A DNA stretch of 64,000 nucleotides. Origin: Chthoniobacterales bacterium (GTDB lineage: Bacteria; Verrucomicrobiota; Verrucomicrobiia; Chthoniobacterales; UBA6821). Position 1 is the first letter of the stretch. The number at the start of each line of letters is the position of its first letter. The notes beneath the pieces were generated by a model. It had not been told where the DNA came from. It saw nothing but the letters and a program-made list of their open reading frames with translations, and did not search any database. A program made the translations under genes and the position numbers. The stretch covers positions 1,207-65,206 of the forward strand of contig JAIEQF010000021.1 in NCBI GenBank assembly GCA_019747895.1, written 5' to 3'. Positions 2,184 through 63,144 of this stretch are shown here, one piece after another.

Positions 2184-2193
2184 GCGGGGCAGA

Positions 2194-2356
2194 TTACAGG
2201 TTACAGGTTGCAGGTTACAGGAAAAAATTCGAAGATTGAGTTGAAAAGTTGAAGTGTTTTAAAAACAAAGTGCATGTTGTTTAAAAAAAACGATTAATTT
2301 TTTTCTGTTGATGGCTTTTCCCCTACACCCTGTAACCTGCACCCTGTAACCTGTAG
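2194..2356. repeat. split-arm inverted repeat, CCTGTAA/CCTGCAA heptamer family (both arms)
   Basis: Left arm 2194-2221 ttacaggttacaggttgcaggttacagg; right arm 2328-2356 ccctgtaacctgcaccctgtaacctgtag; about 105-nt AT-rich spacer. The left arm ends 10 nt from the PfkB start. The right arm is inside the GT2 3' end. Confidence 0.9.
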
Positions 2357-3104: not shown

Positions 3105-3288
3105 AATTAACCACAAAGAACACAAGACAAAGAAGAGAATTAACCGCAAAGAACGCAAAGAACGCAAAGAAAAAATTGCAGTGATTTACTTTTCCAAATT
3201 CACAAAGTTGGGTTATCACGCAAATAAAGACAAAATGCCACTAGCGAAGCTTCATCTTTCAACTTTTTTGCGTTCTTTGCGGTTAATT
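3105..3288. repeat. split-arm inverted repeat, (A/G)CAAAGAAC 9-10-mer family, long form
   Basis: Left arm 3105-3171 aattaaccacaaagaacacaag...aattaaccgcaaagaacgcaaagaacgcaaagaa; right arm 3268-3288 ttgcgttctttgcggttaatt. The spacer is similar, in reverse orientation, to the spacer of 59195-59374. Confidence 0.85.
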
Positions 3289-4253: not shown

Positions 4254-4395
4254 AGAGGGAGAGTAACGGTCAGCTGATGGATTTTTTGCTTTATGAATAG
4301 AAAGGGTTATCTAGAGTCTACCAGTAATTTTCTCTCTTCCATCCTAAAAATTAATTTAGAAAATGAAAACCATAATAAAACTATATTGTTTCTGA

Positions 4396-5829
4396 ATGCT
4401 TTTATTAACGGTCTCAACACTGGTTGCCGACCCTGTCTTATTCAATTATCTTGGAACAGGAGAAAATCCAAGGCTCTCGCTTACCTTATCTTCTAATGGG
4501 AATAACTGGAATCCTTATTCCATCGATTATCAAAGCAGTGGAAATATTCCATGGGGTTCTAATGCAGGAAATAATTGGAGCACTTGGGATGTCAAAGATG
4601 AAAATGGCCAATATTATGGAACGATCACGATAGAAGATGTCAACGGTGCACCTTCTGAGACAAAGTATGTTGGAGGAAACGTTGGTTATTATCTCGAAGG
4701 AGTTCATTTTAATTATGTCTCTGCAGACAACTACAGCCTGACTGTTGACGTTATCCATGGATATTCTAATAGTGACCCCTTTCCCGATGCGCCCGTTGCG
4801 ACACCTGCCGTTTATCCCGACTCCGAAACTCCAATTATCCTCTCCACTTCTGGCAATACCATTATTAACGACAAAGGCACCCCAATAATTTTAAAAGGTC
4901 TCGTACGTCCCTCGCTCGAATGGAATGCACAAGGGCAATATTTGAGTGTTAGTGACATTATCAACATAAGAAACTGGGGAGCTAATGTCATTCGTCTCGA
5001 TCTCAATCAAGGCTACTGGCTCTCCTCCGCCCCTATTAGCACACAGGGATCTTATAAGCAAATTATCGATGCGATTATTTATTATGCTACTCAAAATAAG
5101 ATGGCGGTGATTTTAGATTTGCACTGGTTGACTCCTAATGGGGGACAACAACCGATGGCAAATAGTGACTCGATCACCTTTTGGCAACAAGTAGCGAATC
5201 AATACAAAAATTTTGGCACGGTCATCTTTGAACTCTATAATGAACCCTATGGAATCAGCCAAAATGATTGGTTAAATGGTGGAGATGGATATATCGGATA
5301 CCAGCAACTTTATGATGCAGTACGAGGCGCAGGAGCAAACAATCTCTGCATCGTCAATGGTCTTGATTACGCCTATGACCTAAGCTTTGTGAATGATAGT
5401 TTTCGCGTCACTGGTTCTAATATTATCTATGGCTCGCACCCTTATAATCAAAAAGGCCAAGATGGATATACCGGCGCTGGAGGCACCTTTGCAACAGACT
5501 TTGCGGGCATCTTAGGAAAATATCCGATTATTTTTACAGAGTTTGGAGTCAATGATAACAGCTACTTTCCAACAGCCTATAAATCGATCTATGAAAATAT
5601 TCTAGCCTACGCCAATGCTAATAGTATTTCTTATTCTGGTTTTGCATGGTGGGTCGATACTAATCCTGCTTTTCCAACGCTGATTAGTGATTGGAATGGA
5701 ACCCCGCTCAATGGTGGCGTTCTTGTTCATGATGATTTACAAAACAACCCTGGAACCTCGATTTTTCAAGAGACTGCTAAAGAGCCAAAAAAGAGAACGT
5801 GGCGGTCATGGTGGTTATCATGGTGGTAG
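4396..5829 (+). CDS. glycoside hydrolase family 5 (endoglucanase/cellulase-like)
   Basis: 477-aa ORF. FELYNEP (acid/base Glu in the NEP motif) and IIFTEFG (nucleophile Glu) about 130 aa apart, as in GH5. Asn/Tyr/Ile-rich composition. See the finding on an in-frame TGA just upstream. Confidence 0.8.
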   Translation: MLLLTVSTLVADPVLFNYLGTGENPRLSLTLSSNGNNWNPYSIDYQSSGNIPWGSNAGNNWSTWDVKDENGQYYGTITIEDVNGAPSETKYVGGNVGYYLEGVHFNYVSADNYSLTVDVIHGYSNSDPFPDAPVATPAVYPDSETPIILSTSGNTIINDKGTPIILKGLVRPSLEWNAQGQYLSVSDIINIRNWGANVIRLDLNQGYWLSSAPISTQGSYKQIIDAIIYYATQNKMAVILDLHWLTPNGGQQPMANSDSITFWQQVANQYKNFGTVIFELYNEPYGISQNDWLNGGDGYIGYQQLYDAVRGAGANNLCIVNGLDYAYDLSFVNDSFRVTGSNIIYGSHPYNQKGQDGYTGAGGTFATDFAGILGKYPIIFTEFGVNDNSYFPTAYKSIYENILAYANANSISYSGFAWWVDTNPAFPTLISDWNGTPLNGGVLVHDDLQNNPGTSIFQETAKEPKKRTWRSWWLSWW

Positions 5830-5839
5830 ACTGTCTTTG

Positions 5840-6604
5840 CTACCGCGCTTTTGGCAGGGAGGGAATCAAAAATTCCAAGCTCCCCGAAGCAACCCATCCT
5901 TCCTGCCCAGTAGCCGTGCGCACGTAGGACCAAACGCCATGCTGCGAGAGCAAGATGAGGCAGCTCCCTGTCGGAAGTTGAGCAAGCACCGAAGAGGCAT
6001 CAGCTGGCGTAGCACGAAGAGGTGTTGTCGCAGGACGATCTGGTTGATGTTCTAGTGCCGCTTTAGCATCGGGTTTTGGAAGCAACACAACCTCATAGCG
6101 AGCGTGCAGACGCGGGTCAATGATCACACCCAATACCGAAATAGCATGTCCCACGAGACAAAGAAACACGACCAAGAAAAAAAGGCGCCATCGCTTAGGC
6201 TTCTTTGTTGATGGAAGAATTTGCAGGAAAAAAATAACGATAAGAATTGCCGTTGCGCTCCATCCGATCACAGTTCCAACAAAAGTTATTTTTTCAGGCG
6301 CGTAGCGTGATGCTAGCTTTTGCTGCCAAGAAGACTCCATGGGCAACTCCATTTTTGACAACACTTCTTGCAGCTCTTGTTGGGCTACAGCAAGAGTCGG
6401 ATCAAGCACCAGAGCCCGCCGCAGAGCTAACGAAGCAGCTGGCAAATCTCCTGCATCTTTTTCAGCGAGCGCTTCGTTGTAGTATTCCTCGGGAGAGGCA
6501 GTCTTACTCTTCTGTGATACACTCATTGCGGCAAGAGGCACTCCCAACAATAGGAAAAAAATAATGAGTAATGAGTAACGGGTAATGGGTAGCTGTCGCT
6601 TCAT
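5840..6604 (-). CDS. BatE-like TPR / transmembrane / SH3b protein
   Basis: 254-aa ORF. Last gene of the Bat operon. Contains a TPR-like segment (YYNEALAEKDAGDLPAASLALRRALVLDP), two TM helices and a C-terminal SH3b-like segment (GSCLILLSQHGVWSYVRTATGQEGWV). Confidence 0.55.
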   Translation of the reverse strand: MKRQLPITRYSLLIIFFLLLGVPLAAMSVSQKSKTASPEEYYNEALAEKDAGDLPAASLALRRALVLDPTLAVAQQELQEVLSKMELPMESSWQQKLASRYAPEKITFVGTVIGWSATAILIVIFFLQILPSTKKPKRWRLFFLVVFLCLVGHAISVLGVIIDPRLHARYEVVLLPKPDAKAALEHQPDRPATTPLRATPADASSVLAQLPTGSCLILLSQHGVWSYVRTATGQEGWVASGSLEFLIPSLPKAR

Positions 6605-6711
6605 AGGTTTATTCTAATTTAAAGTTTCATCTTTTTAATATGCAAATAACGTTTTTGATTCGTTTTTACGTATGTCCTGCCTCTGTCTAACACTCATTAC
6701 TCATTACCCAT
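6563..6711. repeat. split-arm inverted repeat, TAATGAG/TAACGGG heptamer family
   Basis: Left arm 6563-6591 aatgagtaatgagtaacgggtaatgggta (translated as the BatE-like N-terminus LPITRYSLLI). Right arm 6692-6711 actcattactcattacccat (contains the batD stop and last codons). Confidence 0.85.
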
Positions 6712-8475
6712 GACTTTTTTCAATTGCTTTATCAATCGTTCTTTTTCAGGAGCAGTCAAAAAGGTCATGCGTGCGCCATAGTGAATTTCATCTCGCCGTC
6801 TTAAAATTTCTTCGAGATCAGCAACGTCAGCCACTCCTTGCTTCAGAAATAACTCCGCAGCAGTTGCTGCTTTGTCATAAAATTCAGCAATGGAAAGCTC
6901 TTCTTTCTCAAGCTCTGCAATCAACTCTTCAAGGCGCTGCCGCTCTTGATCAAGGGGCGATCGTGCTCGCTGACTATAAGCTCTGACTGCAAAGATGCCG
7001 ATGAGCACCACAGAACCAAAGAAAAATGCCAACCAGGTCAGCACCCATTCTTTTTGATGGAGCGGATCTTTCCAGGAACGCTCCGTTTTTTGGTTTAAAC
7101 GCTCTCCGGCAACTAGCTTTGGAGCAGCAGGAGAAGGAGAGGCTGTTGCGCCTCCAGCAGCTGAAGGAGCTCCTGCTGTTGGAGTGGGAGCAGGCGTGGC
7201 GTTGCTGATTTCAAGTGGAAGTGGCTTCGTCTTTAGCGTGACATATTTTGTGGCAATAGGATCGAAATAAGAAAAAGAAGAACCTGGCGTCGCTGTCACC
7301 GCCTGCTGCGCAATCATGGTCGTATCAAAAGTCTTCACCCCCCTCCATCCAAAAACATCTGTTGCTTCAAAATGATCAGCTGGAGGATAAGTGCGCCATC
7401 CTTGTGTTTCTGTCAACTGGGGTCCTTTCAAGGCTTGAAAATTTCCTTGCCCAGAAAGTTTTAAAGAAAGCGTTACTGGATCTCCTTGATCTACTTTTTG
7501 CGGAGCAACAGATCCCTCTAAACGAAATTGACCAATCGCACCTGAGAAGTCTGCTGGACGACCTTCTGAAGGCAGAGGCATGACCTCACAATGTGTTGCA
7601 CTTGTTTTGAGCGTCATCTTATGTTGTCGAACCAAAGGAGACCTTCCTCCCATGAGTCGTGAAAAAAGATCGGGATCGATCCCGACTGGCGTTGGCTCTG
7701 GAATGGCAACAGCAATATCCAATGTCGCTGGCGGAATATCCAAGACTCCCGTCTTCACAGCAGCAAAGAGAGTGCGAAAGGTGGCCACGGTATAGATTAA
7801 ATTGTTTCGATTTTCACGACTCTGCTCCGGATCTTTGAAACGATCGGTCAAGACCCCCTCTCCCCCAAAGTTAGGTGGCCCCATGGTAGAAAATCCGTAA
7901 TGAGCATCGACGTAAAATCGAATTTCTACCGGCACGACTTCTCCGACATAAAATTTCTTTTTAGGAATTACGACTTCTGCAAAACCGAGACGACCTGGAT
8001 CAACGTTGTTGCTAGGTTGGTTCGCAAGCCTCGATGGCAAGGTAGCAGAACCAGGATTCATTGGAGACACCTGTTGCGAAGGAGCATTTGGAGAGGCTGA
8101 CCCTGAACCTATTACCGCCAATTGCAATGGCGTTGTTTTCATCATTCGCCCTTCAGCTCGCACGGTGACAGGAGGAACGGTGAGGTTTCCCGTTTTTAAA
8201 GGAACCACAATGTAAGAATAGATCACCGAAGAAGAGACTTGAAAATTAATCATCTGAACCTGAGATGATTGCCCTGTGAGCTTGATTTGGAGACCCTCTG
8301 CAGCAATCTCAGGAGGAACATCTGCTTGTTCTGCACCCGTCACTTTGACATCAAGCTGCACGACCTCTCCCGCAGCCACACGATTGCGCGATAACGTCGC
8401 CGTTGCATTGACCGAGGGGGAAGATGCAAAACAGATATTGCTGAATAAAAGTAAAATGAATAACGAGTATTTCAC
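6697..8475 (-). CDS. batD: BatD-like oxygen-tolerance protein
   Basis: 592-aa ORF with signal peptide, long beta-rich ectodomain, a late TM helix (WVLTWLAFFFGSVVLIGIFAV) and a cytoplasmic tail. It occupies the position after the batA/batB-type VWA genes. Confidence 0.7.
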   Translation of the reverse strand: MKYSLFILLLFSNICFASSPSVNATATLSRNRVAAGEVVQLDVKVTGAEQADVPPEIAAEGLQIKLTGQSSQVQMINFQVSSSVIYSYIVVPLKTGNLTVPPVTVRAEGRMMKTTPLQLAVIGSGSASPNAPSQQVSPMNPGSATLPSRLANQPSNNVDPGRLGFAEVVIPKKKFYVGEVVPVEIRFYVDAHYGFSTMGPPNFGGEGVLTDRFKDPEQSRENRNNLIYTVATFRTLFAAVKTGVLDIPPATLDIAVAIPEPTPVGIDPDLFSRLMGGRSPLVRQHKMTLKTSATHCEVMPLPSEGRPADFSGAIGQFRLEGSVAPQKVDQGDPVTLSLKLSGQGNFQALKGPQLTETQGWRTYPPADHFEATDVFGWRGVKTFDTTMIAQQAVTATPGSSFSYFDPIATKYVTLKTKPLPLEISNATPAPTPTAGAPSAAGGATASPSPAAPKLVAGERLNQKTERSWKDPLHQKEWVLTWLAFFFGSVVLIGIFAVRAYSQRARSPLDQERQRLEELIAELEKEELSIAEFYDKAATAAELFLKQGVADVADLEEILRRRDEIHYGARMTFLTAPEKERLIKQLKKVMGNE

Positions 8476-8493
8476 AGGGATGGAATAAAGAGA

Positions 8494-8634
8494 GGCTATA
8501 GGCTGTAGGTTATAGGAAGTTTTTAGATCAAAACATAAATTAAAAAATCGGTTGAACTTATCGAGTGAAAAAATTTCTTTTTTTGCCGAAGGCCTTACTT
8601 TGACCTACAGCCTATGGCCTATAGCCTACAGCCT
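8494..8634. repeat. split-arm inverted repeat, GCCTACA/GCCTATA heptamer family
   Basis: Left arm 8494-8516 ggctataggctgtaggttatagg; right arm 8604-8634 cctacagcctatggcctatagcctacagcct. Lies between the batB stop and the batD start. Confidence 0.9.
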
Positions 8635-8638
8635 GTCT

Positions 8639-10867
8639 TCACCAATCTTTAGTGACCTCTTCGGAGTTGCTACGCTGTTGAAATTTGACTTGCTGCTCTT
8701 CTTCTTGCACAGAACGAAGAAGCCCCTCTGCTTGATGACGAGACATTTCTTTTCCATCTTTCTCTTCTTTTCTTTCCTCGGCCGAGGCTGCTGGCTGCCC
8801 CCCTCCTTGGCCTGCGGCTTGGAGTGCGCCACTCTTTTTTTCACCAGGCGTTGGACGAGGCGCCGCCTGTGAACCGTCACGAGACTGTTGTTGTTGGGAA
8901 GATTTTTCACCTCCTCCTTGTTGTTGAGGAGAAGAAGGAGTCGCTGTTGGTGAAGGGGAAGGAGCAGCTGAAGACCCCTCCTTGCCTGAGGAAGAAGAAG
9001 GCGTTGGAGTTGGCGTTACTCCTCCTCCTTTCTGCTGGCCTTGCGCAGAAGAGCCTTGTTGATTTTTTTGATCGTTGTTTGGGGAAGGAGTCGGCGTTGG
9101 ATTGGGAGAGCCAGAAGCTTGTGGCGGTTGTTGCTCATTCTCCTTCGGCTGATTCTGTTGCTGATTCTGGTTTTGCGGTTGTTGTTTCTGTTGCTGATTT
9201 TGTTGTTGTTTCTGCTGCTGACCTTGACCTTGCTGTTGCTTTTGATCCTGCTGTTGCTTTTGATCCTGCTGTTGCTTTTGATCCTGCTGTTGCTTTTGAT
9301 CCTGCTGTTGTTGGTTTTGCTGTTGTTGGTTTTTATTTTGTGGCGGGGTTTTCTCGTCCTGTTTTTTTTGCAAATCCTCCATTAACTTCTTAACAAGATC
9401 GCGATTCTCTTTTGCATTTTTGTTATTCGGGTCTTGTTTCAAGACAGTGTCATAATGCTGCAACGCATTTTTCCAATCAGAAAGTTTGATGTCACGATCT
9501 TGCTGCTGCTCGCCAGAACGAACAAGCGTGTTGGCAAGATTGTAAGTCGCCGCTTCTTGCAGTTTCTGATCAGAAGCCGTCATCGCACTGGTAAAATAGT
9601 CTGCTGCTTTTTGATAATCTCCCTTTTTGTAAGCAGCCGCACCTGCATCAAAACGCACTTCTGGAGAAGAAGGAATTTTTTCGAGCCTCTGCTCAAAACT
9701 TTGAAGCGCGGCTTCGTAGTCTCCTTGCTGATACTCTTGAATTCCAGGTGTTGCTTGCGCATTAGAAGCCGCTATCAAAGCCACAGCGATCCAACAGCCA
9801 ATCTTTCTTCGACGAAAGCGCGGAAAAAAACAAAAATGACTGTCTGTTTCGCCGCGTGCGCGGGGACAAGCCCGCAACAAAATCGAAAGCAATAGCAAAA
9901 CCAGCGCGATGCTCGCTGGAATTTGATACCGCTCAATAGGCTTTCTGGCGCTCATTTCAGCGGTCAATCCAGCCTCGAGCGGAGCAATTCCTTTTTCAAC
10001 AATTGTGTGTGCTGCCTGAGGACTGAAAGGTTCATAAAAACCTCCTGTCACTTGAGCAATCTCTTTTAAACGAGCCTCATCGAGTTTAGAAAGAACCGGC
10101 TTGCCACGTTCATCGCGCACAAAATCAGTTCCTCCATTTTCATTTCTAATAGGAATGAGTGATCCTGCTGCAGAACCGATGCCGATCGTAAAAATTTTAA
10201 TCCCTTGCGCTGCCGCTTGTTTGGCTACGGCGACAGCATCTTCTTCCAAATCCTCACCATCAGTGATAATGACTAACGCACGGCTCGTCCCTTCCCCTTT
10301 GCCAAAAGCGATCTCTGCTGTTCGGATCGCTTCCGAAATATTTGTCCCTCCTTTTGGAATGAGCGCTGTATCTAATTCCGCGAGCGAAGCCGTCACAGCG
10401 CTATGATCAAGTGTCATCGGAGCTTGCAAAAAAGCACTTCCTGCAAAAGCAATTAACCCAACGCGATCTCCTGGCAACAAATCGAGAACGTCTTGCCCTA
10501 AAAGCTCTGCCCGTGCTAAGCGTGTTGGCGTGACATCCGTTGCTAACATGCTGCGGGAGGTATCAATCGCGATCATCACGTCGCGCCCGTGAGAGACCAC
10601 TTTCTTTTCTTCATATCCCCATCGCGGTTCCGCTAATGCAAGAATAAGAAAAGCCCAGGCAAGGAGCAATACCATCGAGCGAGCGGCTCTTCTCCAAGGA
10701 GTCACCGAAGAAAGCAAGACGGCCCGAAGTCGCAACGCAACAATTTTAGCAAGAAGTCGCTGCCGTCGCCGATGCGCTTTCCAAAAAAGAAGCGCAAGCG
10801 GAATGATCGCCACAAGCATCCAGAGTAAGGATGATCGGCCAAAAGCGAGAGTGTGATCAAAAATCAT
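8639..10867 (-). CDS. batB: BatB/BatC-like VWA + TPR protein with long Q/P/S-rich tail
   Basis: 742-aa ORF. N-terminal TM helices, VWA MIDAS motif (VMIAIDTSRSM), TPR region (YQQGDYEAALQSFEQ..., YKKGDYQKAADYF), then ~250 aa of low complexity including DQKQQQ x4. Confidence 0.75.
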   Translation of the reverse strand: MIFDHTLAFGRSSLLWMLVAIIPLALLFWKAHRRRQRLLAKIVALRLRAVLLSSVTPWRRAARSMVLLLAWAFLILALAEPRWGYEEKKVVSHGRDVMIAIDTSRSMLATDVTPTRLARAELLGQDVLDLLPGDRVGLIAFAGSAFLQAPMTLDHSAVTASLAELDTALIPKGGTNISEAIRTAEIAFGKGEGTSRALVIITDGEDLEEDAVAVAKQAAAQGIKIFTIGIGSAAGSLIPIRNENGGTDFVRDERGKPVLSKLDEARLKEIAQVTGGFYEPFSPQAAHTIVEKGIAPLEAGLTAEMSARKPIERYQIPASIALVLLLLSILLRACPRARGETDSHFCFFPRFRRRKIGCWIAVALIAASNAQATPGIQEYQQGDYEAALQSFEQRLEKIPSSPEVRFDAGAAAYKKGDYQKAADYFTSAMTASDQKLQEAATYNLANTLVRSGEQQQDRDIKLSDWKNALQHYDTVLKQDPNNKNAKENRDLVKKLMEDLQKKQDEKTPPQNKNQQQQNQQQQDQKQQQDQKQQQDQKQQQDQKQQQGQGQQQKQQQNQQQKQQPQNQNQQQNQPKENEQQPPQASGSPNPTPTPSPNNDQKNQQGSSAQGQQKGGGVTPTPTPSSSSGKEGSSAAPSPSPTATPSSPQQQGGGEKSSQQQQSRDGSQAAPRPTPGEKKSGALQAAGQGGGQPAASAEERKEEKDGKEMSRHQAEGLLRSVQEEEQQVKFQQRSNSEEVTKDW
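9230..9301. repeat. 18-bp tandem repeat x4 inside batB-like gene (DQKQQQ units)
   Basis: ctgctgttgcttttgatc repeated four times head-to-tail on the plus strand, flanked by degenerate CTG/TTG-rich sequence. Confidence 0.9.
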
Positions 10868-13377: not shown

Positions 13378-13390
13378 AAAAAAACAAAAG

Positions 13391-13555
13391 GAATAGCCAC
13401 AAAAGAACACAAAGAGCACAAAAAAAAGACAAAAATTTAATAGATGTTTCTTTTTGAAAAAGAAAAATTTATTTCATCAGAACGCCACTTCTAATTATAC
13501 CTTCTTTGTGTTCTTTTGTGGCTATTCTCTTTTTTTCTGTGTTCTTTGTGGTTAA
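13391..13555. repeat. split-arm inverted repeat, (A/G)CAAAGAAC family
   Basis: Left arm gaatagccacaaaagaacacaaagagcacaaa (13391-13421); right arm tctttgtgttcttttgtggctattc (13503-13527) plus an extra tctgtgttctttgtggttaa (13536-13555). Lies between the moxR stop and the DUF58 start. Confidence 0.85.
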
Positions 13556-14769: not shown

Positions 14770-15963
14770 TCAAGGCAATGGCTCTGACAGCAGGTTCATC
14801 CTAGCTAAATATTCCTTTGCCTGCTGCAGCAATTCCTCGCGATGTTCTCCCGTGAACGTGATGTGCCCCATTTTGCGGCCAGGCTTCGCCTCTTTTTTCC
14901 CATAAAGATGCAAGCTGATCTCTGGATGTCCTAGAAACGGCTTCCAATCTGGTTCGCCAGCCTGCCAAAGATCACCTAAAAGATTGAGCATAATGGCAGG
15001 CTTGACTAATTCAGTAGAACCGAAGGGCACTCCGGTCAGCGCACGTACGCTTTGTTCAAACTGACTCGTCTTAGATGACTCGATTGTGTGATGCCCTGAA
15101 TTGTGAGGTCGCGGCGCCAGTTCATTGACAATGATCTCGTCATTCGAAAGCACAAAAAATTCAATCGTGATCAAGCCCACAACATCGAGAGCCTCTGCTA
15201 TTTTTTGAGCTAAGGAGATCGCTTGCTCCAAAACTTTTTTAGAAAAACGAGCAGGCGCTCTTGAAACATCAAGGATTCCTTTCACATGACTATTTTCTTG
15301 CGGAGGGAAAGAGCTGATCTCTCCGCTCGTCGACCTTGCCACAATCACAGAGCCTTCTGCGCAAAAATTGATTCGCTTCTCCAAAACAGCGCGCTTGGCA
15401 CGCAAGTCCGCCCACGCTTGTTGCAGCTCTGCTGCAGAGGCATTTGCTGCGATGGAGACCTGCCCCTTGCCATCGTATCCCAGCGTTGCTGTTTTCAAAA
15501 TGGCATCGCTTTTTAATTCGCTCACTGCTGCAACAAGTTCTTCAACAGAGGTGATCACTCGAAATGGAGCCACAGGAAATCCACTTTTTTGCAAAAATTC
15601 TTTTTCAAAAATGCGATCTTGGCAAATGCGAACCACCTGTGGAGAGGGATACAGCGGCCGCAATGTGGACAGCAATTCGAGAGAGGCGGCAGGAATATTT
15701 TCAAACTCCAACGTGATGAGATCAACACGACTTGCAAAATCTCTCAATGCCTTTTCGTCCTCAAACGAAGCCACGATCATTTCATCACCCACCGAAGCAG
15801 CTGGACCTCCTGGAAGAACATCGTACACCAGCACGCGATGCCCCATTTTTTTCGCAGCCATCGCCATCATTTGCCCGAGCTGGCCACTGCCAAGGAGGCC
15901 TAAGGTCAGGTTACAGGTTGCAGGTTGCAGGTTATCAGGTTGTTTGTTTTTACTGGCTCTCAT
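14770..15963 (-). CDS. purK: N5-carboxyaminoimidazole ribonucleotide synthase (ATP-grasp)
   Basis: 397-aa ORF. LGLLGSGQLGQMMAMAAKKMG N-terminal Rossmann segment and an ATP-grasp core. The first ~20 codons (..QPDNLQPATCNLT) are heptamer-arm sequence, so the true start is uncertain. Confidence 0.85.
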   Translation of the reverse strand: MRASKNKQPDNLQPATCNLTLGLLGSGQLGQMMAMAAKKMGHRVLVYDVLPGGPAASVGDEMIVASFEDEKALRDFASRVDLITLEFENIPAASLELLSTLRPLYPSPQVVRICQDRIFEKEFLQKSGFPVAPFRVITSVEELVAAVSELKSDAILKTATLGYDGKGQVSIAANASAAELQQAWADLRAKRAVLEKRINFCAEGSVIVARSTSGEISSFPPQENSHVKGILDVSRAPARFSKKVLEQAISLAQKIAEALDVVGLITIEFFVLSNDEIIVNELAPRPHNSGHHTIESSKTSQFEQSVRALTGVPFGSTELVKPAIMLNLLGDLWQAGEPDWKPFLGHPEISLHLYGKKEAKPGRKMGHITFTGEHREELLQQAKEYLARMNLLSEPLP

Positions 15964-16090
15964 GAAATGCTAAGACAATTACTTTTCTCAATTTTCAAAA
16001 ATAACATCACCACCTTAACAAACAATGATTCTCAAAAAAAATGAATAATGCTTTTTACCTGCAACCTGTAACCTGTAACCTGTAACCTGC
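15905..16090. repeat. split-arm inverted repeat, CCTGTAA/CCTGCAA family, shared by the divergent purK and lpxL-waaF genes
   Basis: Left arm 15905-15940 gtcaggttacaggttgcaggttgcaggttatcaggttg (inside the purK 5' end). Right arm 16058-16090 cctgcaacctgtaacctgtaacctgtaacctgc, ending 3 nt before ATG 16094. Confidence 0.9.
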
Positions 16091-16093
16091 TTT

Positions 16094-17749
16094 ATGTCCC
16101 GCCTCATCTATTTCATTGCACTTTTCGTAGTCACCATTATTCGAAACCTTCCACTGCGTTGCTGCTTCCGGTGTGGACAGGCATTGGGATGGATCGCATG
16201 GCTGATACTGCCTCAATATCGTCGCTTGGCCCAACGAAACTTGCAGATTGCTTTTGGAACAGAAGTCTCTTCCTCTCAACTTCATCGCTGGACTCGTCAA
16301 AGCTTGATGATGTTGGGCGCCAACATCCTCTCCTCTTTAAAAATGCCTGCGATGCAGATCGAGGAAATTCAGAAGACCTTCACGATCGAAGGAGAAGAAT
16401 ATTGGGAAAAATTTATTGCCCGCAATGATCATGGCGGCACCGTAGCTGCGCTAAACCATTTTGGAAATTGGGAACTCAATGCTCAAGCGGTTGTCTGTCT
16501 CAAAATGCGCGCTGCGGGAACCGTCTATCAACCTCTTCGCAATCGCTTCATTGATGATTTAATTAATCGTGACAGGAGAAGTCGTGGCGTTGCTACTTTT
16601 GATCGACGAAAAGATTTATCAGCAGCAGCTTCTTTGCTGCGACAGGGAGGATTGCTTGGCATCTTGACCGATCAACATGCCGGCGACGCTGGCATCTGGG
16701 TTCCTTTTTTTAACAAACTCGCTTCTACATCACCTCTCGCTGCAACCTTGGCTCAAAAAACAGGCGCTGCACTCATCCCCATCACGATCCGCACTGTTGG
16801 AGTAGCTCGCTGGGTCATCAAGATTCACCCTCCCATCGCAACTCAAGATAGAGCGATTAGACCTCTTTCGAAACTCGCTGCTGGCGATAACCGAGCCTCT
16901 TGGGAAGAGGCGAGATGCCTCTCGTCAGAGAGCCCAAAGGGCGAGCAGTCGGGAAGACTGCGAGGCCAAGAGCAAGGAGAGGAGGCGCACAGACGAGGAG
17001 TGTATAAGGACATACTCGACGAGACGAGCACCGATGCGACACAGCTATTCGCGTCAGCAGTAGAGTCTCCAAAGAGGTCCATCGGTGCGATCACCTACGA
17101 CTTGGGCGAAGCCTTAGCTCAAGAAATTCGCCGCTCGCCCACCGATTGGTTTTGGGTTCATAATCGTTGGAAACTTCCTAAGCCTGCATTTTTATTGAGT
17201 CGCACTCGCCGCGGATTTTTTCTGCCAGAAGCAACACCGCAATTCGCGGCAACAGTAGAGTTTCGAAAGAAGTTACAACCGCTGAAACTTCTCGTTCGTT
17301 CCCCCAACTGGCTTGGAGACGCTTGCATGGCGCTCCCCGCCATTCGTTCTCTCAAAGCAGGTCGTCCCGATCTTCATCTCACGATCTTGACGCCAGCTAA
17401 GCTCGCTGATCTTTGGAAGGTTGTTTCAGAAATTGATGACATCATCATCATTCCTCCCAAAGCCGCTCCGTGGGAGGTTGCAAAGCTCTTGCGGCAGCGT
17501 ACCAATTCGAATTTGGTACCTCCGTTTGCTGCGGCACTCCTCTTGCCGAATTCCGTCCGCTCTGCACTGGAAGTTTGGCTAGCCAAGATTCCACGCCGCA
17601 TTGGCCGTGTTGGAAAAAAAGGAAAGTTGCGTTCTTGGCTGATCAACCAACCCTTCCCTGATGACATCGAAAAACTAAACCACGAACGAGATCAATACTT
17701 CGCCGTGGCCCGCTGGCTGGGAGCGCCGGAAACAGACTGTAGGCTGTAG
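16094..17749 (+). CDS. fusion: lipid A secondary (lauroyl/myristoyl-type) acyltransferase + N-terminal domain of ADP-heptose:LPS heptosyltransferase
   Basis: 551-aa ORF. The N-half has the LpxL/HtrB HX4E motif (ALNHFGNWELN) and the WFWVHNRWK end. It continues without a stop into LLVRSPNWLGDACMALPAIRSL...LLPNSVRSAL (GT9 N-domain). It carries an in-frame palindromic insert at about 16855-17083 and ends at a TAG inside a repeat arm. Confidence 0.7.
   Translation: MSRLIYFIALFVVTIIRNLPLRCCFRCGQALGWIAWLILPQYRRLAQRNLQIAFGTEVSSSQLHRWTRQSLMMLGANILSSLKMPAMQIEEIQKTFTIEGEEYWEKFIARNDHGGTVAALNHFGNWELNAQAVVCLKMRAAGTVYQPLRNRFIDDLINRDRRSRGVATFDRRKDLSAAASLLRQGGLLGILTDQHAGDAGIWVPFFNKLASTSPLAATLAQKTGAALIPITIRTVGVARWVIKIHPPIATQDRAIRPLSKLAAGDNRASWEEARCLSSESPKGEQSGRLRGQEQGEEAHRRGVYKDILDETSTDATQLFASAVESPKRSIGAITYDLGEALAQEIRRSPTDWFWVHNRWKLPKPAFLLSRTRRGFFLPEATPQFAATVEFRKKLQPLKLLVRSPNWLGDACMALPAIRSLKAGRPDLHLTILTPAKLADLWKVVSEIDDIIIIPPKAAPWEVAKLLRQRTNSNLVPPFAAALLLPNSVRSALEVWLAKIPRRIGRVGKKGKLRSWLINQPFPDDIEKLNHERDQYFAVARWLGAPETDCRL
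16855..17083. mobile_element. in-frame palindromic element (RPE-like), copy in lpxL moiety
   Basis: The termini gattagacctctttcgaaactcgctgctggcgataac and ctattcgcgtcagcagtagagtctccaaagaggtccatc are reverse complements of each other with few mismatches. Central gagtgtataaggacatactcgac. Translated without a stop as ...LSKLAAGDN...LFASAVES... Boundaries +/- a few nt. Confidence 0.75.
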
Positions 17750-17873
17750 GCCAGAAGCAAAATTTTCTCACTATACTTTTTTACAAAGAACAGTTCTTCA
17801 TAAAACGAAACGAGAAATGAAATTTAATCATCAATCACAACCCCTACAGCCCACAGCCTATAGCCTACAGCCT
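17737..17873. repeat. split-arm inverted repeat, GCCTACA/GCCTATA family, inserted inside waaF
   Basis: Left arm 17737-17752 ctgtaggctgtaggcc (supplies the TAG stop of 16094-17749). Right arm 17843-17873 cctacagcccacagcctatagcctacagcct (translated in 17817-18392). The spacer supplies the ATG at 17817. Confidence 0.9.
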
Positions 17874-18392
17874 GAGTCTAGCGGCCTGCTTGCAGCTGCT
17901 AGACAACGCATTGCCATCGCTCCCGGCGCCGAGTACGGCCCTGCTAAACGTTGGCCGACCGATCGTTTTCGTAACGTGATGGATCAGCTCTCTACCAAGC
18001 ATGAGATTGACTGGATCTTAGTTGGAACAGCCGCGGAACGTCCCATTGCAAAAGAAATTTTAACTCCTATTTTTTATGGTCATGTTGAAAACAAAGTCGG
18101 AGAAACCTCGCTAGCTGAGCTCATCCAACTTTTGCAAACCTGCGACCTTCTCCTCACCAATGACACAGGGACGATGCACTTGGCAGATGTCTTAGAAATT
18201 CCCACCGTTGCTATCTTCGGTTCAACAGACCCAACCCTCACTGGCCCGCAAGGTCCTCACCATCGCATTCTGCAACACCCTGTTTCGTGCAGCCCTTGTT
18301 TTTTGCGCAAGTGCCCGATTGATTTTCGCTGCATGCTCGGAGTCACTCCAGAAGAGGTTGCGACGGCGATTGAGGAACAACTCGAATTATAG
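17817..18392 (+). CDS. waaF: C-terminal domain of ADP-heptose:LPS heptosyltransferase (split from 16094-17749)
   Basis: 191-aa ORF. IAIAPGAEYGPAKRWP and TNDTGTMHLA match the GT9 C-domain motifs (PGAxxGxxKRWP, xNDSGxMHxA). The first 20 codons (MKFNHQSQPLQPTAYSLQPE) come from the repeat spacer and arm. Confidence 0.7.
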   Translation: MKFNHQSQPLQPTAYSLQPESSGLLAAARQRIAIAPGAEYGPAKRWPTDRFRNVMDQLSTKHEIDWILVGTAAERPIAKEILTPIFYGHVENKVGETSLAELIQLLQTCDLLLTNDTGTMHLADVLEIPTVAIFGSTDPTLTGPQGPHHRILQHPVSCSPCFLRKCPIDFRCMLGVTPEEVATAIEEQLEL

Positions 18393-18407: not shown

Positions 18408-18697
18408 GGGAGAAGATTCACAGAATACGTGCGGCGTGGCAGCCGCCGGATCGACTGCCGAAGGCAGCCCCGAAGGGGCGATCCTCACCGGAGCGAGCGA
18501 GTTGAAATGGAAGCGACGGAAGGGATAAAAGAAGAAATTTTTTTCATAAAATTAAATTTTTGAAAAGTGTTATCAAAATTTATTGGAAGCTAATTTTAAA
18601 AAGCAAAATCTAGAAAATCTATTTTTTTAGCATCCCTTCCATTGCTTCCATCCCTGTGAATCTCTTCTCTTCCCTGCTTTTCTTTGTGGCCATTTCC
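18408..18697. repeat. composite inverted repeat with nested GC-rich insert
   Basis: gggagaagattcacag (18408-18423) plus atggaagcgacggaagggat (~18506-18525) pair with atcccttccattgcttccatccctgtgaatctcttctcttccc (18632-18674). The left arm is interrupted by ~83 nt of GC-rich sequence holding the small hairpins ctgcc-gaa-ggcag and cccc-gaa-gggg. Followed by ttctttgtggccatt (9-10-mer family fragment). Confidence 0.7.
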
Positions 18698-22258: not shown

Positions 22259-22342
22259 TGTTGAAGCGTTGAGAGCTTGAAACGTTGAAGAGCCGGTAAC
22301 TTTGTCTCTTGTAACTATTTCAACGCTTCAACGTTTCAACCT
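22259..22342. repeat. split-arm inverted repeat, GTTGAAG(C) family, short spacer
   Basis: gtgttgaagcgttgagagcttgaaacgttgaag ... ttcaacgcttcaacgtttcaacc, with a spacer of about 28 nt. Confidence 0.85.
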
Positions 22343-22468
22343 TGTTCGTAGTAATAAACAATGTTCTTGTTTCAAATAGAGCGGTTGCCTTGGCCTGCAA
22401 TGATCTTCAAATACTCCCCCGTTCCGATTTGACACACCTTGACATGCTCGTGTATCTTGCTTGGTCCT

Positions 22469-23371
22469 ATGAAACCGAAGAAGTTGATTCAATTTGATTG
22501 GGCGATCAAGACGCTTTTGCGGAACAAAAGCCATTTTCCGATTCTGGAAGGTTTTCTCTCAGAGTTATTGGAAACGGATGTAAAAATTGAGTCGCTTTTA
22601 GAAAGCGAGTCCAACAAAAAATATGCCGAGGACAAATCGAATCGCGTTGATCTTTTAGCCGAGCTCAAGAGCGGAGAGAAAGTCATCATCGAAGTCCAAT
22701 GCGCTCATCAATGGGATTTTTTCTCGCGGATGTTGTATGGCGTTTCTAAAGTCGTGACAGAACACCTGAAAGAAGGAACCGAGTATGGAACCATGCCACG
22801 TGTCATCTCCGTCAACATTGTCTACTTCGATTTGGGCCATGGCGAAGATTACATCTATCATGGAACGACCGATTTTAAAGGCCTTCACAAAAAAGATATT
22901 TTGCAGCTGAGCGCGAAAGAAAAAGAACATTATCCTGCGCGAATCGATCACGTTTCCAAAGTATTTCCAGAATACTACGTTTTAAAAGTCAGCGCATTTG
23001 ATTTAAAAATTAAGGACACCCTCGATGAGTGGATCTACACGTTGCAACAGTCGGAGGTCCGACCTGAGTTTAAAGCCAAAGGGCTTCAGGAGGCCGCTAA
23101 TCAATTAAGCATTCTTCAACTTTCGGATGCCGAGCGTGCCGCATATGAGCGTCATGTTGGTGATAACAGAGATTCAAAGAGCATTTGGCGAACCTACTAC
23201 AGCGATGGAAAAAGGGAAGGTTTAGCGCAGGGTCTTGAACAAGGACGCGCTGAAGAAAGAGCCGCTGTGATTAGCAATCTGTATCGTTTGAGATTGCCAC
23301 TAGAGCAGATTGCTGCAGCAGTAGAACTTTCTTCTGAAGAAGTCCAAGAAATTATTTCTTCTAAAAAATAG
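22469..23371 (+). CDS. Rpn/YhgA-like PD-(D/E)XK nuclease family putative transposase, copy 1
   Basis: MKPKKLIQFDWAIKTLLRNKSHFPILEGFLSELL...DKSNRVDLLAELKSGEKVIIEVQ (D...E.Q/K nuclease core) and C-terminal ISNLYRLRLPLEQIAAAVELS helix-rich tail. Paralogue of 53848-54714 and 56904-57782. The ATG at 22469 is chosen by alignment with the other copies. Confidence 0.7.
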   Translation: MKPKKLIQFDWAIKTLLRNKSHFPILEGFLSELLETDVKIESLLESESNKKYAEDKSNRVDLLAELKSGEKVIIEVQCAHQWDFFSRMLYGVSKVVTEHLKEGTEYGTMPRVISVNIVYFDLGHGEDYIYHGTTDFKGLHKKDILQLSAKEKEHYPARIDHVSKVFPEYYVLKVSAFDLKIKDTLDEWIYTLQQSEVRPEFKAKGLQEAANQLSILQLSDAERAAYERHVGDNRDSKSIWRTYYSDGKREGLAQGLEQGRAEERAAVISNLYRLRLPLEQIAAAVELSSEEVQEIISSKK

Positions 23372-26032: not shown

Positions 26033-26042
26033 AGAAAGAGTT

Positions 26043-26142
26043 AATAGCCACAAAAGAACACAAAGAGCACAAAAAATAGGCATGCAAAAATTGAAAGCTC
26101 TTTAATTCTTCTTTGTGTTCCTTGTGTTCTTTTGTGGCTATT
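26043..26142. mobile_element. ~100-bp MITE-like element of the (A/G)CAAAGAAC family, copy A (between convergent gyrB and nadB)
   Basis: aatagccacaaaagaacacaaagagcacaaaaaataggcatgcaaaaattgaaagctctttaattcttctttgtgttccttgtgttcttttgtggctatt. Nearly identical to 41514-41615, including the spacer. Confidence 0.8.
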
Positions 26143-26147
26143 CTCTT

Positions 26148-53708: not shown

Positions 53709-53847
53709 GGGGTCGGTTCCGTTATTTCGATAATTTGGTGCCATAGCATTAATTTAAAAATTATTTTTGATTTTGCTTTCGTCTTCGAGTTTTTGCTTCC
53801 ATTCAATTTGACATCCGTTGACAGGATCTAGTAGATTGTTTGGTCCT
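53709..53847 (+). promoter_or_regulatory. conserved 5' block of Rpn-like gene copy 2 (possible element end plus promoter)
   Basis: ggggtcggttccgttatttcgataatttggtgccatagcattaatttaaaaatta...attcaatttgacatccgttgacagg. Repeated at 54758-, related at 56765- and 21476-. Contains TTGACA hexamers 25-40 nt before the ATG. Confidence 0.45.
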
Positions 53848-54714
53848 ATGAAGCCAAAGAAGCTGATTCAATTTGATTGGGCGATCAAGACGCTTTTGCG
53901 AAACAAGAGTCACTTTCCGATTCTAGAAGGCTTTCTATCGGAGCTGTTGCACACCGATGTGAAAATCGAGTCGCTCTTGGAAAGTGAGTCGAATAAAAAG
54001 CATGCCCAAGACAAATCGAATCGCGTTGATGTTTTAGCTCAGCTCAAGAGCGGAGAGAAAGTCATCATTGAAGTTCAATGCGCTCATCAATGGGATTTTT
54101 TCTCACGCATGTTGTATGGTGTTTCCAAAGTAGTTGCTGAGCACCTCAAGGAAGGAGAAGAATATGGCACTATGCCACGTGTGATCTCCGTCAACATCGT
54201 TTATTTCGACTTGGGTCACGGCGAAGATTACATCTATCATGGAACGACCGATTTTAAAGGCGTTCACAAAAAAGATATCTTGCAGCTGAGCCCCAAAGAA
54301 AAAGAACATTATCCTGCGCGCATCGATCACGTTTCTAAAGTATTTCCGGAATACTATGTTTTAAAAGTCAGTGAATTTGATTTGAAAATTAAAGACACGC
54401 TCGATGAGTGGATCTATGCACTGCAACAGTCCGAGGTCCGACCTGAATTTAAGGCCCAAGGAATTCAAAAGGCCGCTGAACAATTAAGTATTCTTCAACT
54501 TTCAGAATCCGATCGTATCGCATACGAGCGTTATGTTGGCGATAACAGAGATGCAAAAAGTGTTTGGCGTACTTATTACAGCGATGGTAAGCGAGAAGGA
54601 AAAGCTGAAATGATTCACAACCTATATCGCTTGGGATTGCCTCTGGAACAAATTGCCACAGCCGCTCAACTTTTGCCGGAGCAGATCGAGGAGATTTTGA
54701 AATCAGAAATATAA
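53848..54714 (+). CDS. Rpn/YhgA-like PD-(D/E)XK nuclease family putative transposase, copy 2
   Basis: MKPKKLIQFDWAIKTLLRNKSHFPILEGFLSELLHTDVKIESL...VDVLAQLKSGEKVIIEVQ. Very similar to copy 3 throughout. Confidence 0.7.
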   Translation: MKPKKLIQFDWAIKTLLRNKSHFPILEGFLSELLHTDVKIESLLESESNKKHAQDKSNRVDVLAQLKSGEKVIIEVQCAHQWDFFSRMLYGVSKVVAEHLKEGEEYGTMPRVISVNIVYFDLGHGEDYIYHGTTDFKGVHKKDILQLSPKEKEHYPARIDHVSKVFPEYYVLKVSEFDLKIKDTLDEWIYALQQSEVRPEFKAQGIQKAAEQLSILQLSESDRIAYERYVGDNRDAKSVWRTYYSDGKREGKAEMIHNLYRLGLPLEQIATAAQLLPEQIEEILKSEI

Positions 54715-63010: not shown

Positions 63011-63090
63011 AGGGGTCAGTCAGCCCTATTGGCACATTTGATCCCATAGCAAAAATTATATAAATGTGCCAATAGGGCTGACTGACCCCT
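63011..63090. repeat. GGGGTCAGTC hairpin H3 (variant arms)
   Basis: aggggtcagtcagccctattggcacattt - 22-nt loop - aaatgtgccaatagggctgactgacccct. The outer aggggtcagtc and inner acattt are shared with H1/H2. The middle differs, but both arms changed together. Confidence 0.9.
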
Positions 63091-63144
63091 AGGTTGAATT
63101 TGCTTTAGCCTGCAGCCCGTAAGGTGTATCGTGATAGCCCGTCT

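Follow-up and report, generated by a model that had tools for sequence, protein, structure and literature searches.

The heptanucleotide array upstream of lpxL in a Chthoniobacterales bacterium: probably one arm of an inverted-repeat cassette, with stop codons as an arithmetic side effect

The 64,000-nucleotide stretch analysed here (positions 1,207 to 65,206 of contig JAIEQF010000021.1, assembly GCA_019747895.1), hereafter called the window, comes from a Chthoniobacterales bacterium and carries the divergent genes purK and lpxL, the latter encoding a lipid A acyltransferase. The entire spacer between these genes is filled by an inverted repeat of ~185 bp, hereafter called E4, in which two arrays of seven-nucleotide units flank an AT-rich centre. 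The array under study is the C-rich arm of E4 (16057-16089/90, plus strand), which consists of 4.7 copies of CCTGYAA, lies in the 5′ leader of lpxL, and leaves 4 nt between its end and the lpxL ATG (16094). It reads ACCTGCA, ACCTGTA three times over, and finally ACCTG, and therefore holds three TAA triplets, at −25, −18, and −11 from the lpxL ATG, one in each reading frame. The partner arm (15907-15941) reads (CAGGTTR)n on the plus strand and is of the CCTGYAA type on the sense strand of purK, which lies on the minus strand; its translation is the N-terminal PurK peptide NLQPATCNLT. The centre (15942-16056, 115 nt) contains the purK ATG (15963, minus strand) and a weak promoter-like match (16015-16042, plus strand), and a 14-codon upstream open reading frame (ORF; 16041-16085) runs from it and terminates inside the C-rich arm. 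The centre is 87% identical to its counterpart in L121, a syntenic contig from a relative. An earlier reading, made from the letters of the window and hereafter called the sequence-only reading, placed closure of all frames by 16058-16090 at 3-17 nt before the lpxL ATG. The three frames are indeed closed, while the gaps between stop and ATG are actually 22, 15, and 8 nt. We consider it probable that the array is the lpxL-proximal arm of a foldback-type heptanucleotide inverted-repeat cassette resembling the STRR (short tandemly repeated repetitive) elements of cyanobacteria, and that its frame closure is a matter of arithmetic.

E4 is one of seven inverted-repeat pairs in the window, hereafter called cassettes, which are accompanied by six to seven solo arms. 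The cassettes share one layout: a G-rich arm, an AT-rich centre of 87-131 nt, and a C-rich arm. Tandem Repeats Finder reported period-7 arrays of 2.1-5.4 copies at about 20 places, and an independent period-7 scan was concordant. The sequence CCTGYAACCTGYAA, with at most one mismatch, has 25 matches in the window as compared to 0.04 expected, and every array is located either in a spacer or in the first or last codons of a gene. The unit type varies by cassette (CCTGYAA, CCTAYAG, CCTTCAG/CCCTCAG, ACTCATT, or GTTACTC), and both arms of any one cassette share the same type without exception. All seven cassettes fold with the arms as the closing stem, which comprises 18-34 pairs (z = −3.5 to −9). 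In an all-against-all search, the centres did not align to one another, and no second copy of any centre was found within the ~180 kb of window and relatives.

Why does the lpxL array close all three frames? Because 7 equals 1 modulo 3, all three frames become closed once the repeated unit holds a stop triplet. The sequence-only reading gave this arithmetic correctly, and added that each heptamer holds a stop on one strand; CCTGCAA, a common variant of the unit, is free of stops on both strands. CCTGTAA, the commonest unit here, contains TAA. With the composition of this genome, the probability that a random heptamer array contains a stop is 33% for a given strand and 54% for the two strands taken together. 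When we counted the frames closed by the 14 start-proximal arms in the window, the sense strand closed more than the antisense strand in 8 arms and fewer in 6. The 8 sense-biased arms all belong to the CCTGYAA family, and the 6 antisense-biased arms all belong to other unit families. In the relatives with called genes, the sense strand closed more frames in 4 cases and fewer in 10. All three frames are closed within the arm in only two of the 14 start-proximal arms, those of lpxL and pdhB; the latter case (39191-39212) had already been described in the sequence-only reading, as had the closure of two frames each by the arms before the PfkB, nucleotidyltransferase (MNT), and FMN-reductase genes, and our counts agree. 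The 45 nt upstream of arm-bearing genes close 1.57 frames on average, as compared to 1.71 for 38 arm-less genes. Moreover, the orthologous lpxL leaders of the relatives L121, L124, L126, and L127 close two frames, and so does the arm-less leader of L130. Finally, among the 120 loci listed from a scan of many phyla (described below), stop-free CAA units outnumber TAA units by 236 to 195, and 45 of these loci consist of CAA units only. These counts show that the three-frame pattern is an arithmetic side effect, and that the stops are incidental. The sequence-only reading had itself stated that a lack of strand bias in the stop-bearing orientation would refute it; since neither strand count shows such a bias, and neither the leaders nor the units across phyla show an excess of stops, its proposal that the arms insulate downstream starts is not borne out.

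The invariant feature shown by these arms is their polarity, rather than their stops. On the sense strand, C exceeds G in all 14 start-proximal arms of the window, and G exceeds C in all six stop-proximal arms. The nearest-gene cases in the relatives also have C exceeding G on the sense strand (12/12), so that a C-rich arm on the sense strand directly precedes the start in 26 of 26 cases overall. The arm ends ~4-8 nt ahead of most start codons. No Shine-Dalgarno motifs were seen at the start regions across the window, and the last 5-15 nt before most start codons are rich in C and T (for example, ttttcATG and cttccccATG). Across phyla, and irrespective of the unit, the 5′ arm is the G-rich one in 31 of the 32 heptamer pairs among the loci listed, and the G-rich array runs 5′ to 3′ toward the centre on both strands. 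Two explanations of this polarity were tried and rejected. It does not arise from stop-rich purine strands at gene ends, as CCTGTAA has its stop on the C-rich strand and still obeys the polarity. Avoidance of Rho loading also fails as a general explanation, because cyanobacterial pairs follow the same polarity, and cyanobacteria, to our knowledge, lack Rho. Crude ORF calls in other phyla gave no orientation signal (19 vs 16 and 16 vs 13), and this test is unreliable, since a short hairpin contributes both of its arms to the start-proximal class and the arrays are crossed by spurious ORFs.

The remaining cassettes are distributed along the window as follows. E1 (2190-2355, minus strand) has its C-rich arm at 2190-2221, before the PfkB ATG (2183), and its G-rich arm at 2322-2355, which is translated as the C-terminus of a GT2 protein. 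E2 (6554-6721, minus strand) is built from TAATGAG/ACTCATT units, with arms at 6562-6591 and 6692-6715; the stop codon of BatD lies inside the G-rich arm, and the C-rich arm encodes part of the signal peptide of an SH3 protein. E3 (8493-8634, minus strand; AGGCTRT/CCTAYAG units) has arms at 8493-8516 and 8604-8634, and lies between a VWA-TPR gene and BatD. E5 (17737-17873, plus strand; arms 17737-17751 and 17843-17873) splits the fusion gene of lpxL and the GT9 heptosyltransferase. E6 (29935-30098, plus strand; GGCTRAG/CCTTCAG units; arms 29935-29957 and 30068-30098) separates accB from accC, and E7 (35135-35275, minus strand; arms 35135-35165 and 35259-35275) separates bioB from thiE. The solo C-rich arms on the minus strand precede the MNT gene (28066-28098) and the FMN-reductase gene (37441-37471), and a GTTACTC-type arm, as read on the sense strand, precedes secG (29345-29382, minus strand). 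Those on the plus strand lie in the pdhA-pdhB spacer (39191-39212, with TAA, TAA, and TAG), in the pdhB-pdhC spacer (40213-40237), and before a GNAT gene (43046-43077), and a short two-unit C-rich arm (43735-43752) precedes an amino-acid permease gene with its ATG at 43761. The gene names of the sequence-only reading agree with our Pfam scans. Rfam and tRNA scans of the window gave no matches.

In order to follow these elements among relatives, we compared syntenic contigs at ~80-86% DNA identity. Judged by its PurK and ThiE homologues, the window belongs among Chthoniobacterales-like Verrucomicrobiota that are known from metagenomes, and a metagenome scan with PurK gave three close relatives and no more. 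No record matched the PdhB of the window exactly. At the purK-lpxL site, the arms and the centre switch together from lineage to lineage. The CAGGTTA type, with homologous centres, occurs in the window and L121, L124 and L127 have the AGGCTGA type with a different centre, L126 has the AGGCTAT type with a third centre, and L130 has an arm-less spacer and no array in 21 kb. The L124 cassette differs from that of the window despite 92% PurK identity and identical flanking coding DNA. In L127, a small inverted-repeat element (9818-10002, with ends AGTGTCTTAAATTGAAAAG...) is nested in the purK-lpxL cassette, and a related sequence lies in the arm-less L130 spacer (9623-9657). Other sites are refilled by other repeat families: an element with 9-mer arms stands at the BatD/VWA site of L121, which holds E3 in the window, and a GGGATGRAAG-type inverted repeat occupies the accB-accC (E6) and pdhA-pdhB sites in L200. 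In the pdhB-pdhC spacer of L200, the equivalent place is taken by an array that has diverged and is free of stops (CCTACAA CCTCCAA ...). The window and L126 share E5, and L121, L127, and L130 lack it.

By contrast with these exchanges, some elements are strikingly preserved. The E2 region (6473-6772) is 93-100% identical to L121, as compared to ~85% in the flanking genes, and is the best-conserved part of a 2.5-kb block; this conservation of E2 and its non-coding centre suggests that a promoter, leader, or small RNA functions there. In the FMN-reductase arm and its adjoining T-run, 38 of 38 nt are identical to L200, against a background of ~80%. Copy number in non-coding parts changes in 7-nt steps, by one unit in the right arm of E2 and by two in the G-rich arm of E5, and the secG arm has five units in the window and two in L200, indicating that expansion in situ also occurs. 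At the bioB-thiE site, the empty form in L200 reads TGA-AAAATTTCTC-GTG, and the window retains the 11-mer TGAAAAATTTC between the centre and the C-rich arm. This survival places the C-rich arm exactly on the ancestral start codon, and means that E7 is not a single contiguous insertion. Among the ThiE relatives, only the closest have E7. Comparison of the aligned contigs thus shows some cassettes to be constrained and others to turn over as whole units.

The comparison with relatives also indicates that the arms of purK, thiE, the C-terminal GT9 part, and the SH3 protein are translated. In purK, the conserved LGLLGSGQLG motif follows the arm with no start codon intervening, and the N-termini of PurK homologues carry unit-specific peptides (LQPSAFSL, SLQPTAYSL, and NLQPATCNL) of conserved length. 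The ThiE relatives begin with MNPLLASS-LYGILD; the C-rich arm of E7, which overlies the ancestral thiE start codon, is translated, thiE offers no other start, and the in-frame MKNFLQPSAFSLQP occurs only in the window and its two closest relatives. In the SH3 protein, the E2 arm encodes part of the plausible signal peptide MKRQLPITRYSLLIIFFLLLGVPLAA. The sequence-only reading had read these peptides correctly (NLQPATCNLT in purK, FLQPSAFSLQP in thiE, PLQPTAYSLQP in the C-terminal GT9 part, and ELQVTGCRLQ in GT2), while allowing that they might be annotation artefacts; the comparison points instead to real translation. The LQP peptides are thus probably real, with open-frame arms absorbed into the genes. 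As the same reading had proposed, arms also supply stop codons, namely the TGA of bioB (35263-35265, in the G-rich arm of E7), the TAA of BatD (6697-6699), and the TAG of the N-terminal lpxL-GT9 ORF (17747-17749).

The lpxL-GT9 region (16094-18392) combines these effects. In L130, L127, and L121, lpxL and GT9 form a single fused ORF of 647-682 amino acids, whereas in the window they form two ORFs split by E5 at a variable linker. E5 donates the TAG stop from its G-rich arm and an ATG (17817) from its centre, and its C-rich arm is translated as the N-terminal peptide of the second ORF. L126 has the identical split, with an E5 centre of 89% identity; a 3-nt indel separates the two in the translated C-rich arm, as compared to 14 nt of difference in that part of the G-rich arm which is not translated. 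The lpxL part also carries an in-frame insert of 225 nt (75 codons; 16858-17082) with inverted ends of ~28 nt as judged by eye, which is absent from L121, L126, and L130 and present in L124. Partial copies lie inside other coding regions (17228-17273 and 42633-42714), and the insert has the look of a small mobile element whose translation is tolerated.

How far does this architecture extend? A scan of a 596-Gb genome collection for CCTGYAACCTGYAACCTG gave at least 120 loci, where ~70 single matches are expected by chance by our own estimate, and these loci were used solely for architecture statistics. Among the matches listed, CCTGYAA-unit arrays with a like architecture occur in Bacteroidota, Chloroflexota, Acidobacteriota, Planctomycetota, Cyanobacteria, Patescibacteria, and other phyla. 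Of the 120 arrays listed, 28 have an inverted partner within 400 nt and 10 have a direct partner, and 25 of the 28 inverted pairs are ordered with the G-rich arm followed by the C-rich arm.

On the sense strand, the G-poor, pyrimidine-rich version of the repeat thus stands directly before the downstream gene or within its first codons. Where such an arm has a partner, this is the complementary G-rich array, which lies ~90-130 nt upstream and in many cases extends into the end of the upstream gene. From these observations we propose the following for the cassettes. In an RNA that spans both arms, these would pair as a closing stem of 18-34 bp, and the resulting intercistronic hairpin may separate, stabilise, or silence read-through transcripts. 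RNAs initiated in the AT-rich centre would carry just the unstructured C/U-rich arm as their leader, in keeping with the pyrimidine-rich leaders, free of Shine-Dalgarno motifs, that are general in this genome. Stops in an arm would terminate the invaded upstream ORF, open-frame arms would join N-termini, and only such configurations would survive. The data fit this last point, which the sequence-only reading had offered as its alternative, namely that the arms reflect what survives selection after insertion.

Several observations weigh against this reading in whole or in part. The arm stems show no G.U asymmetry between sense and antisense, so that a role at the DNA level is as possible as selection at the RNA level. 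The hairpin and leader roles are themselves inferred, and the promoter/terminator scan of the window was at background level (24 promoter-like sites vs 20.3 expected). Turnover at some sites together with expansion in situ at others shows, from the contig comparisons, that one simple process does not account for both origin and maintenance. As for the stops, TAA units outnumber CAA units by 16 to 9 within the window, the perfectly conserved FMN-reductase arm retains the order TAA-TAA-CAA-TAA, and the lpxL arm of L121 has decayed and yet keeps the three stops TGA, TAG, and TAG. Given the last two arms, the stops may play a minor role.

The excess of TAA units and the stops kept in the decayed L121 arm, together with the closure of three frames at lpxL and pdhB and of two at several other genes, are what would be expected if the arms had been selected because periodic stops end ribosomes in any frame and thereby shield the downstream start. 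We nevertheless regard this explanation as extremely doubtful: strand bias is absent in both data sets, in four unit families the stops fall solely on the strand antisense to the downstream gene, fewer frames are closed in leaders that have an arm than in those that lack one, the orthologous lpxL leaders close two frames with or without an arm, stop-free units stand alone in more than a third of the loci listed from other phyla, and the upstream genes already have stop codons of their own. The claim would have meant a new mode of translation insulation; as the data speak for an arithmetic by-product, it should be dropped. The stops might instead serve short leader ORFs that start in the AT-rich centre and end at the arm just before the true ATG, allowing ribosomes to reinitiate without a Shine-Dalgarno sequence. 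The 14-codon ORF upstream of lpxL, which ends 8 nt before the ATG and has a shorter version in L121, would suit such coupling, as would a similar ORF that enters the PfkB arm, and translational coupling has been proposed for cyanobacterial STRR (PMC2670836). However, the only ATG-initiated ORF in the L124 lpxL leader stops ahead of the arm, no ATG precedes the pdhB and pdhC arms within their spacers, the CCTTCAG, ACTCATT, and GTTACTC arms have no sense-strand stops, and chance ATGs are to be expected in AT-rich centres, all of which makes leader-peptide coupling highly improbable.

The 7-nt register itself could be the signal. The arrays typically hold 3-5 units at a fixed distance of 4-8 nt from the start codon that follows, conservation of the FMN-reductase arm is perfect, and the same small repertoire of units recurs in the relatives, as might be expected of an operator bound by an oligomeric protein that recognises RNA or DNA. 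HutP, for example, recognises UAG-N4 repeats, and TRAP recognises GAG/UAG triplets set at intervals. By analogy with these proteins such an operator is conceivable, but we judge it improbable, as unrelated units (CCTGTAA, CCTTCAG, ACTCATT, and GTTACTC) occur at equivalent positions, even at one gene across relatives, the genes concerned share no common function, and no triplet is common to all of the unit types, although the periodicity is present; no candidate binding protein was identified, none having been sought. An unlikely alternative is that the cassettes are neutral or selfish simple-sequence foldback DNA with no function for the host, in which the arrays arise by 7-nt slippage, intrastrand template switching keeps the arms alike, and purifying selection merely removes harmful configurations. 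The 7-nt steps at E2, E5, and secG, the decay of the arm in L121, the replacement of elements by other repeat families at the same sites, and the lack of arrays in 21 kb of L130 would all follow, and polymerase slippage has been proposed for the heptamer repeats that are over-represented in many bacteria (PMC4692102). Against this, E2 and the FMN-reductase arm are conserved beyond adjacent coding DNA, and symmetric slippage does not predict the strict G-rich-then-C-rich order. Since neither symmetric slippage nor stop codons explain that order, one may also speculate, as an unlikely reading, that the cassettes are a cross-phylum class of self-renewing gene-boundary modules produced by an unknown polar process. 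If that were true, there would have to be a mechanism dedicated to generating or recombining the cassettes, and they would have a general part in how expression is organised where genomes lack Shine-Dalgarno sites.

Several further repeats and genes were observed in the window. The family with 9-mer arms (CACAAAGAA ... TTCTTTGTG), a member of which stands in for E3 in L121, has copies at 3138-3288, 13382-13536, 26036-26149, 41515-41615, 43620-43696, and 59190-59349; in most, the start is only a few bases from a stop codon, and in all of them the purine-rich arm precedes the other. The third family, with GGGATGRAAG/CTTYCATCCC arms, occurs at 18507-18651 in the window, at ~4-155 in L103 (a Verrucomicrobiia metagenome-assembled genome), and at 1200-1470, 2410-2660, and 10030-10150 in L200; the copies in the window, L103, and L200 are 71-73% similar, and in L200 the family fills spacers that hold heptamer elements in the window. 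The fourth family consists of near-perfect palindromes of 30-34 nt with loops of 16-27 nt (TAGGGGTCAGTC...AAATGT / ACATTT...GACTGACCCCTA), located after genes at 42091-42174, 61971-62061, and 63010-63091. Three paralogous genes for putative PD-(D/E)XK (PDDEXK_2, Rpn-like) transposases have similar upstream sequences (22439-23371, 53818-54714, and 56874-57782); the first is absent from the syntenic L121 and adjoins a period-8 inverted repeat (22260-22340). A GH5 cellulase-family gene (4396-5829, in the region 4254-5873) corresponds to merely ~255 nt in L121. The VWA/TPR gene holds, at 9148-9341, perfect 18-nt tandem repeats (TGCTGTTGCTTTTGATCC, 4.4 copies) and related periods of 12-54 nt, all in-frame coding.

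Heptanucleotide arrays are over-represented in many bacteria and are still unexplained, and this lineage offers unusually clean comparative material. Within it, cassettes replace one another at a fixed site, split the lpxL-GT9 gene, and donate a stop, a new start, and a translated N-terminal peptide. Together with cassettes conserved above coding DNA and the cross-phylum polarity, this site refilling, recruitment of arms to N-termini, and gene splitting make the function and origin of heptamer repeats experimentally testable.

How do the cassettes relate to known repeat classes? Correia elements supply promoters, and RNase III cuts their terminal repeats, which pair with each other in RNA. Like Correia/NEMIS and other miniature inverted-repeat transposable elements (MITEs), the cassettes are intergenic inverted repeats of ~100-190 bp at gene starts or ends, with filled and empty sites in relatives (E5, E7, and the L130 purK-lpxL spacer). 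Unlike MITEs, their centres are single-copy with no conserved interior, E7 is not a contiguous insertion, and no direct repeat marking a target-site duplication was seen at the outer edges of E4, E5, and E7 when the junctions were inspected against empty or alternative sites. An ordinary MITE reading was rejected because the all-against-all search found no shared centres. REP hairpins are known as stabilisers of intercistronic mRNA in E. coli. The cassettes share with REP/BIME/REPIN sequences (Bertels and Rainey 2011, PMC3116915) the inverted doublets with a spacer, intergenic position, hairpin-forming capacity, and many copies. In contrast, the REP arm is one conserved palindrome per family, tied to a RAYT transposase, whereas the arms here are tandem heptamers of a cassette-specific unit, and no RAYT/Y1 transposase domain was found in the ORFs of the window (64 kb of the genome) scanned against Pfam.

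Among repeats with the same period, the heptanucleotides of phase variation (E. coli neuO and the H. influenzae hmw promoters; PMC8262952, PMC13001214), set frame or expression by their copy number, and are likewise 7-nt tandem units at a gene 5′ end or promoter. The arms here lie on housekeeping genes, and the translated ones are fixed in copy number or vary by 3-nt indels, with no sign of on/off switching. The heptameric repeats of Xanthomonas (GGGAATC) and Nostoc (GGGGAYT) often occur as inverted pairs, in which the G-rich strands invariably converge (Rehm et al. 2015, PMC4692102). The present arrays resemble them in averaging ~4 units, in their mostly intergenic position near a gene end, in their variable length among relatives, and in their pair polarity. 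Those repeats have G-runs and were studied as G-quadruplex formers, whereas runs of three or more G are absent from the present units, which means that quadruplexes cannot be the common explanation.

The closest likeness is to the STRR of cyanobacteria, which are 7-bp repeats between genes, capable of forming hairpins, of unknown function, and suggested to act in transcript stability or translational coupling (PMC2670836). Both are dispersed intergenic tandem 7-bp units that form hairpins via inverted arrays, and STRR also lie within operons, as in hupS-hupL (PMC2670836). The differences are the host, here a Chthoniobacterales-type verrucomicrobium, the units (CCTGYAA, CCTAYAG, CCTTCAG, ACTCATT, and GTTACTC), the frequent translation of the arms, and the long centres (87-131 nt), some of which hold the downstream start codon and promoter-like matches. 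The window nonetheless shows tandem 7-nt units in at least 2-3 copies, their dispersal far above chance near gene ends, and inverted, G-convergent hairpin pairs, which are the features of the STRR type. The cassettes are therefore a new lineage of a known, functionally unexplained repeat class.

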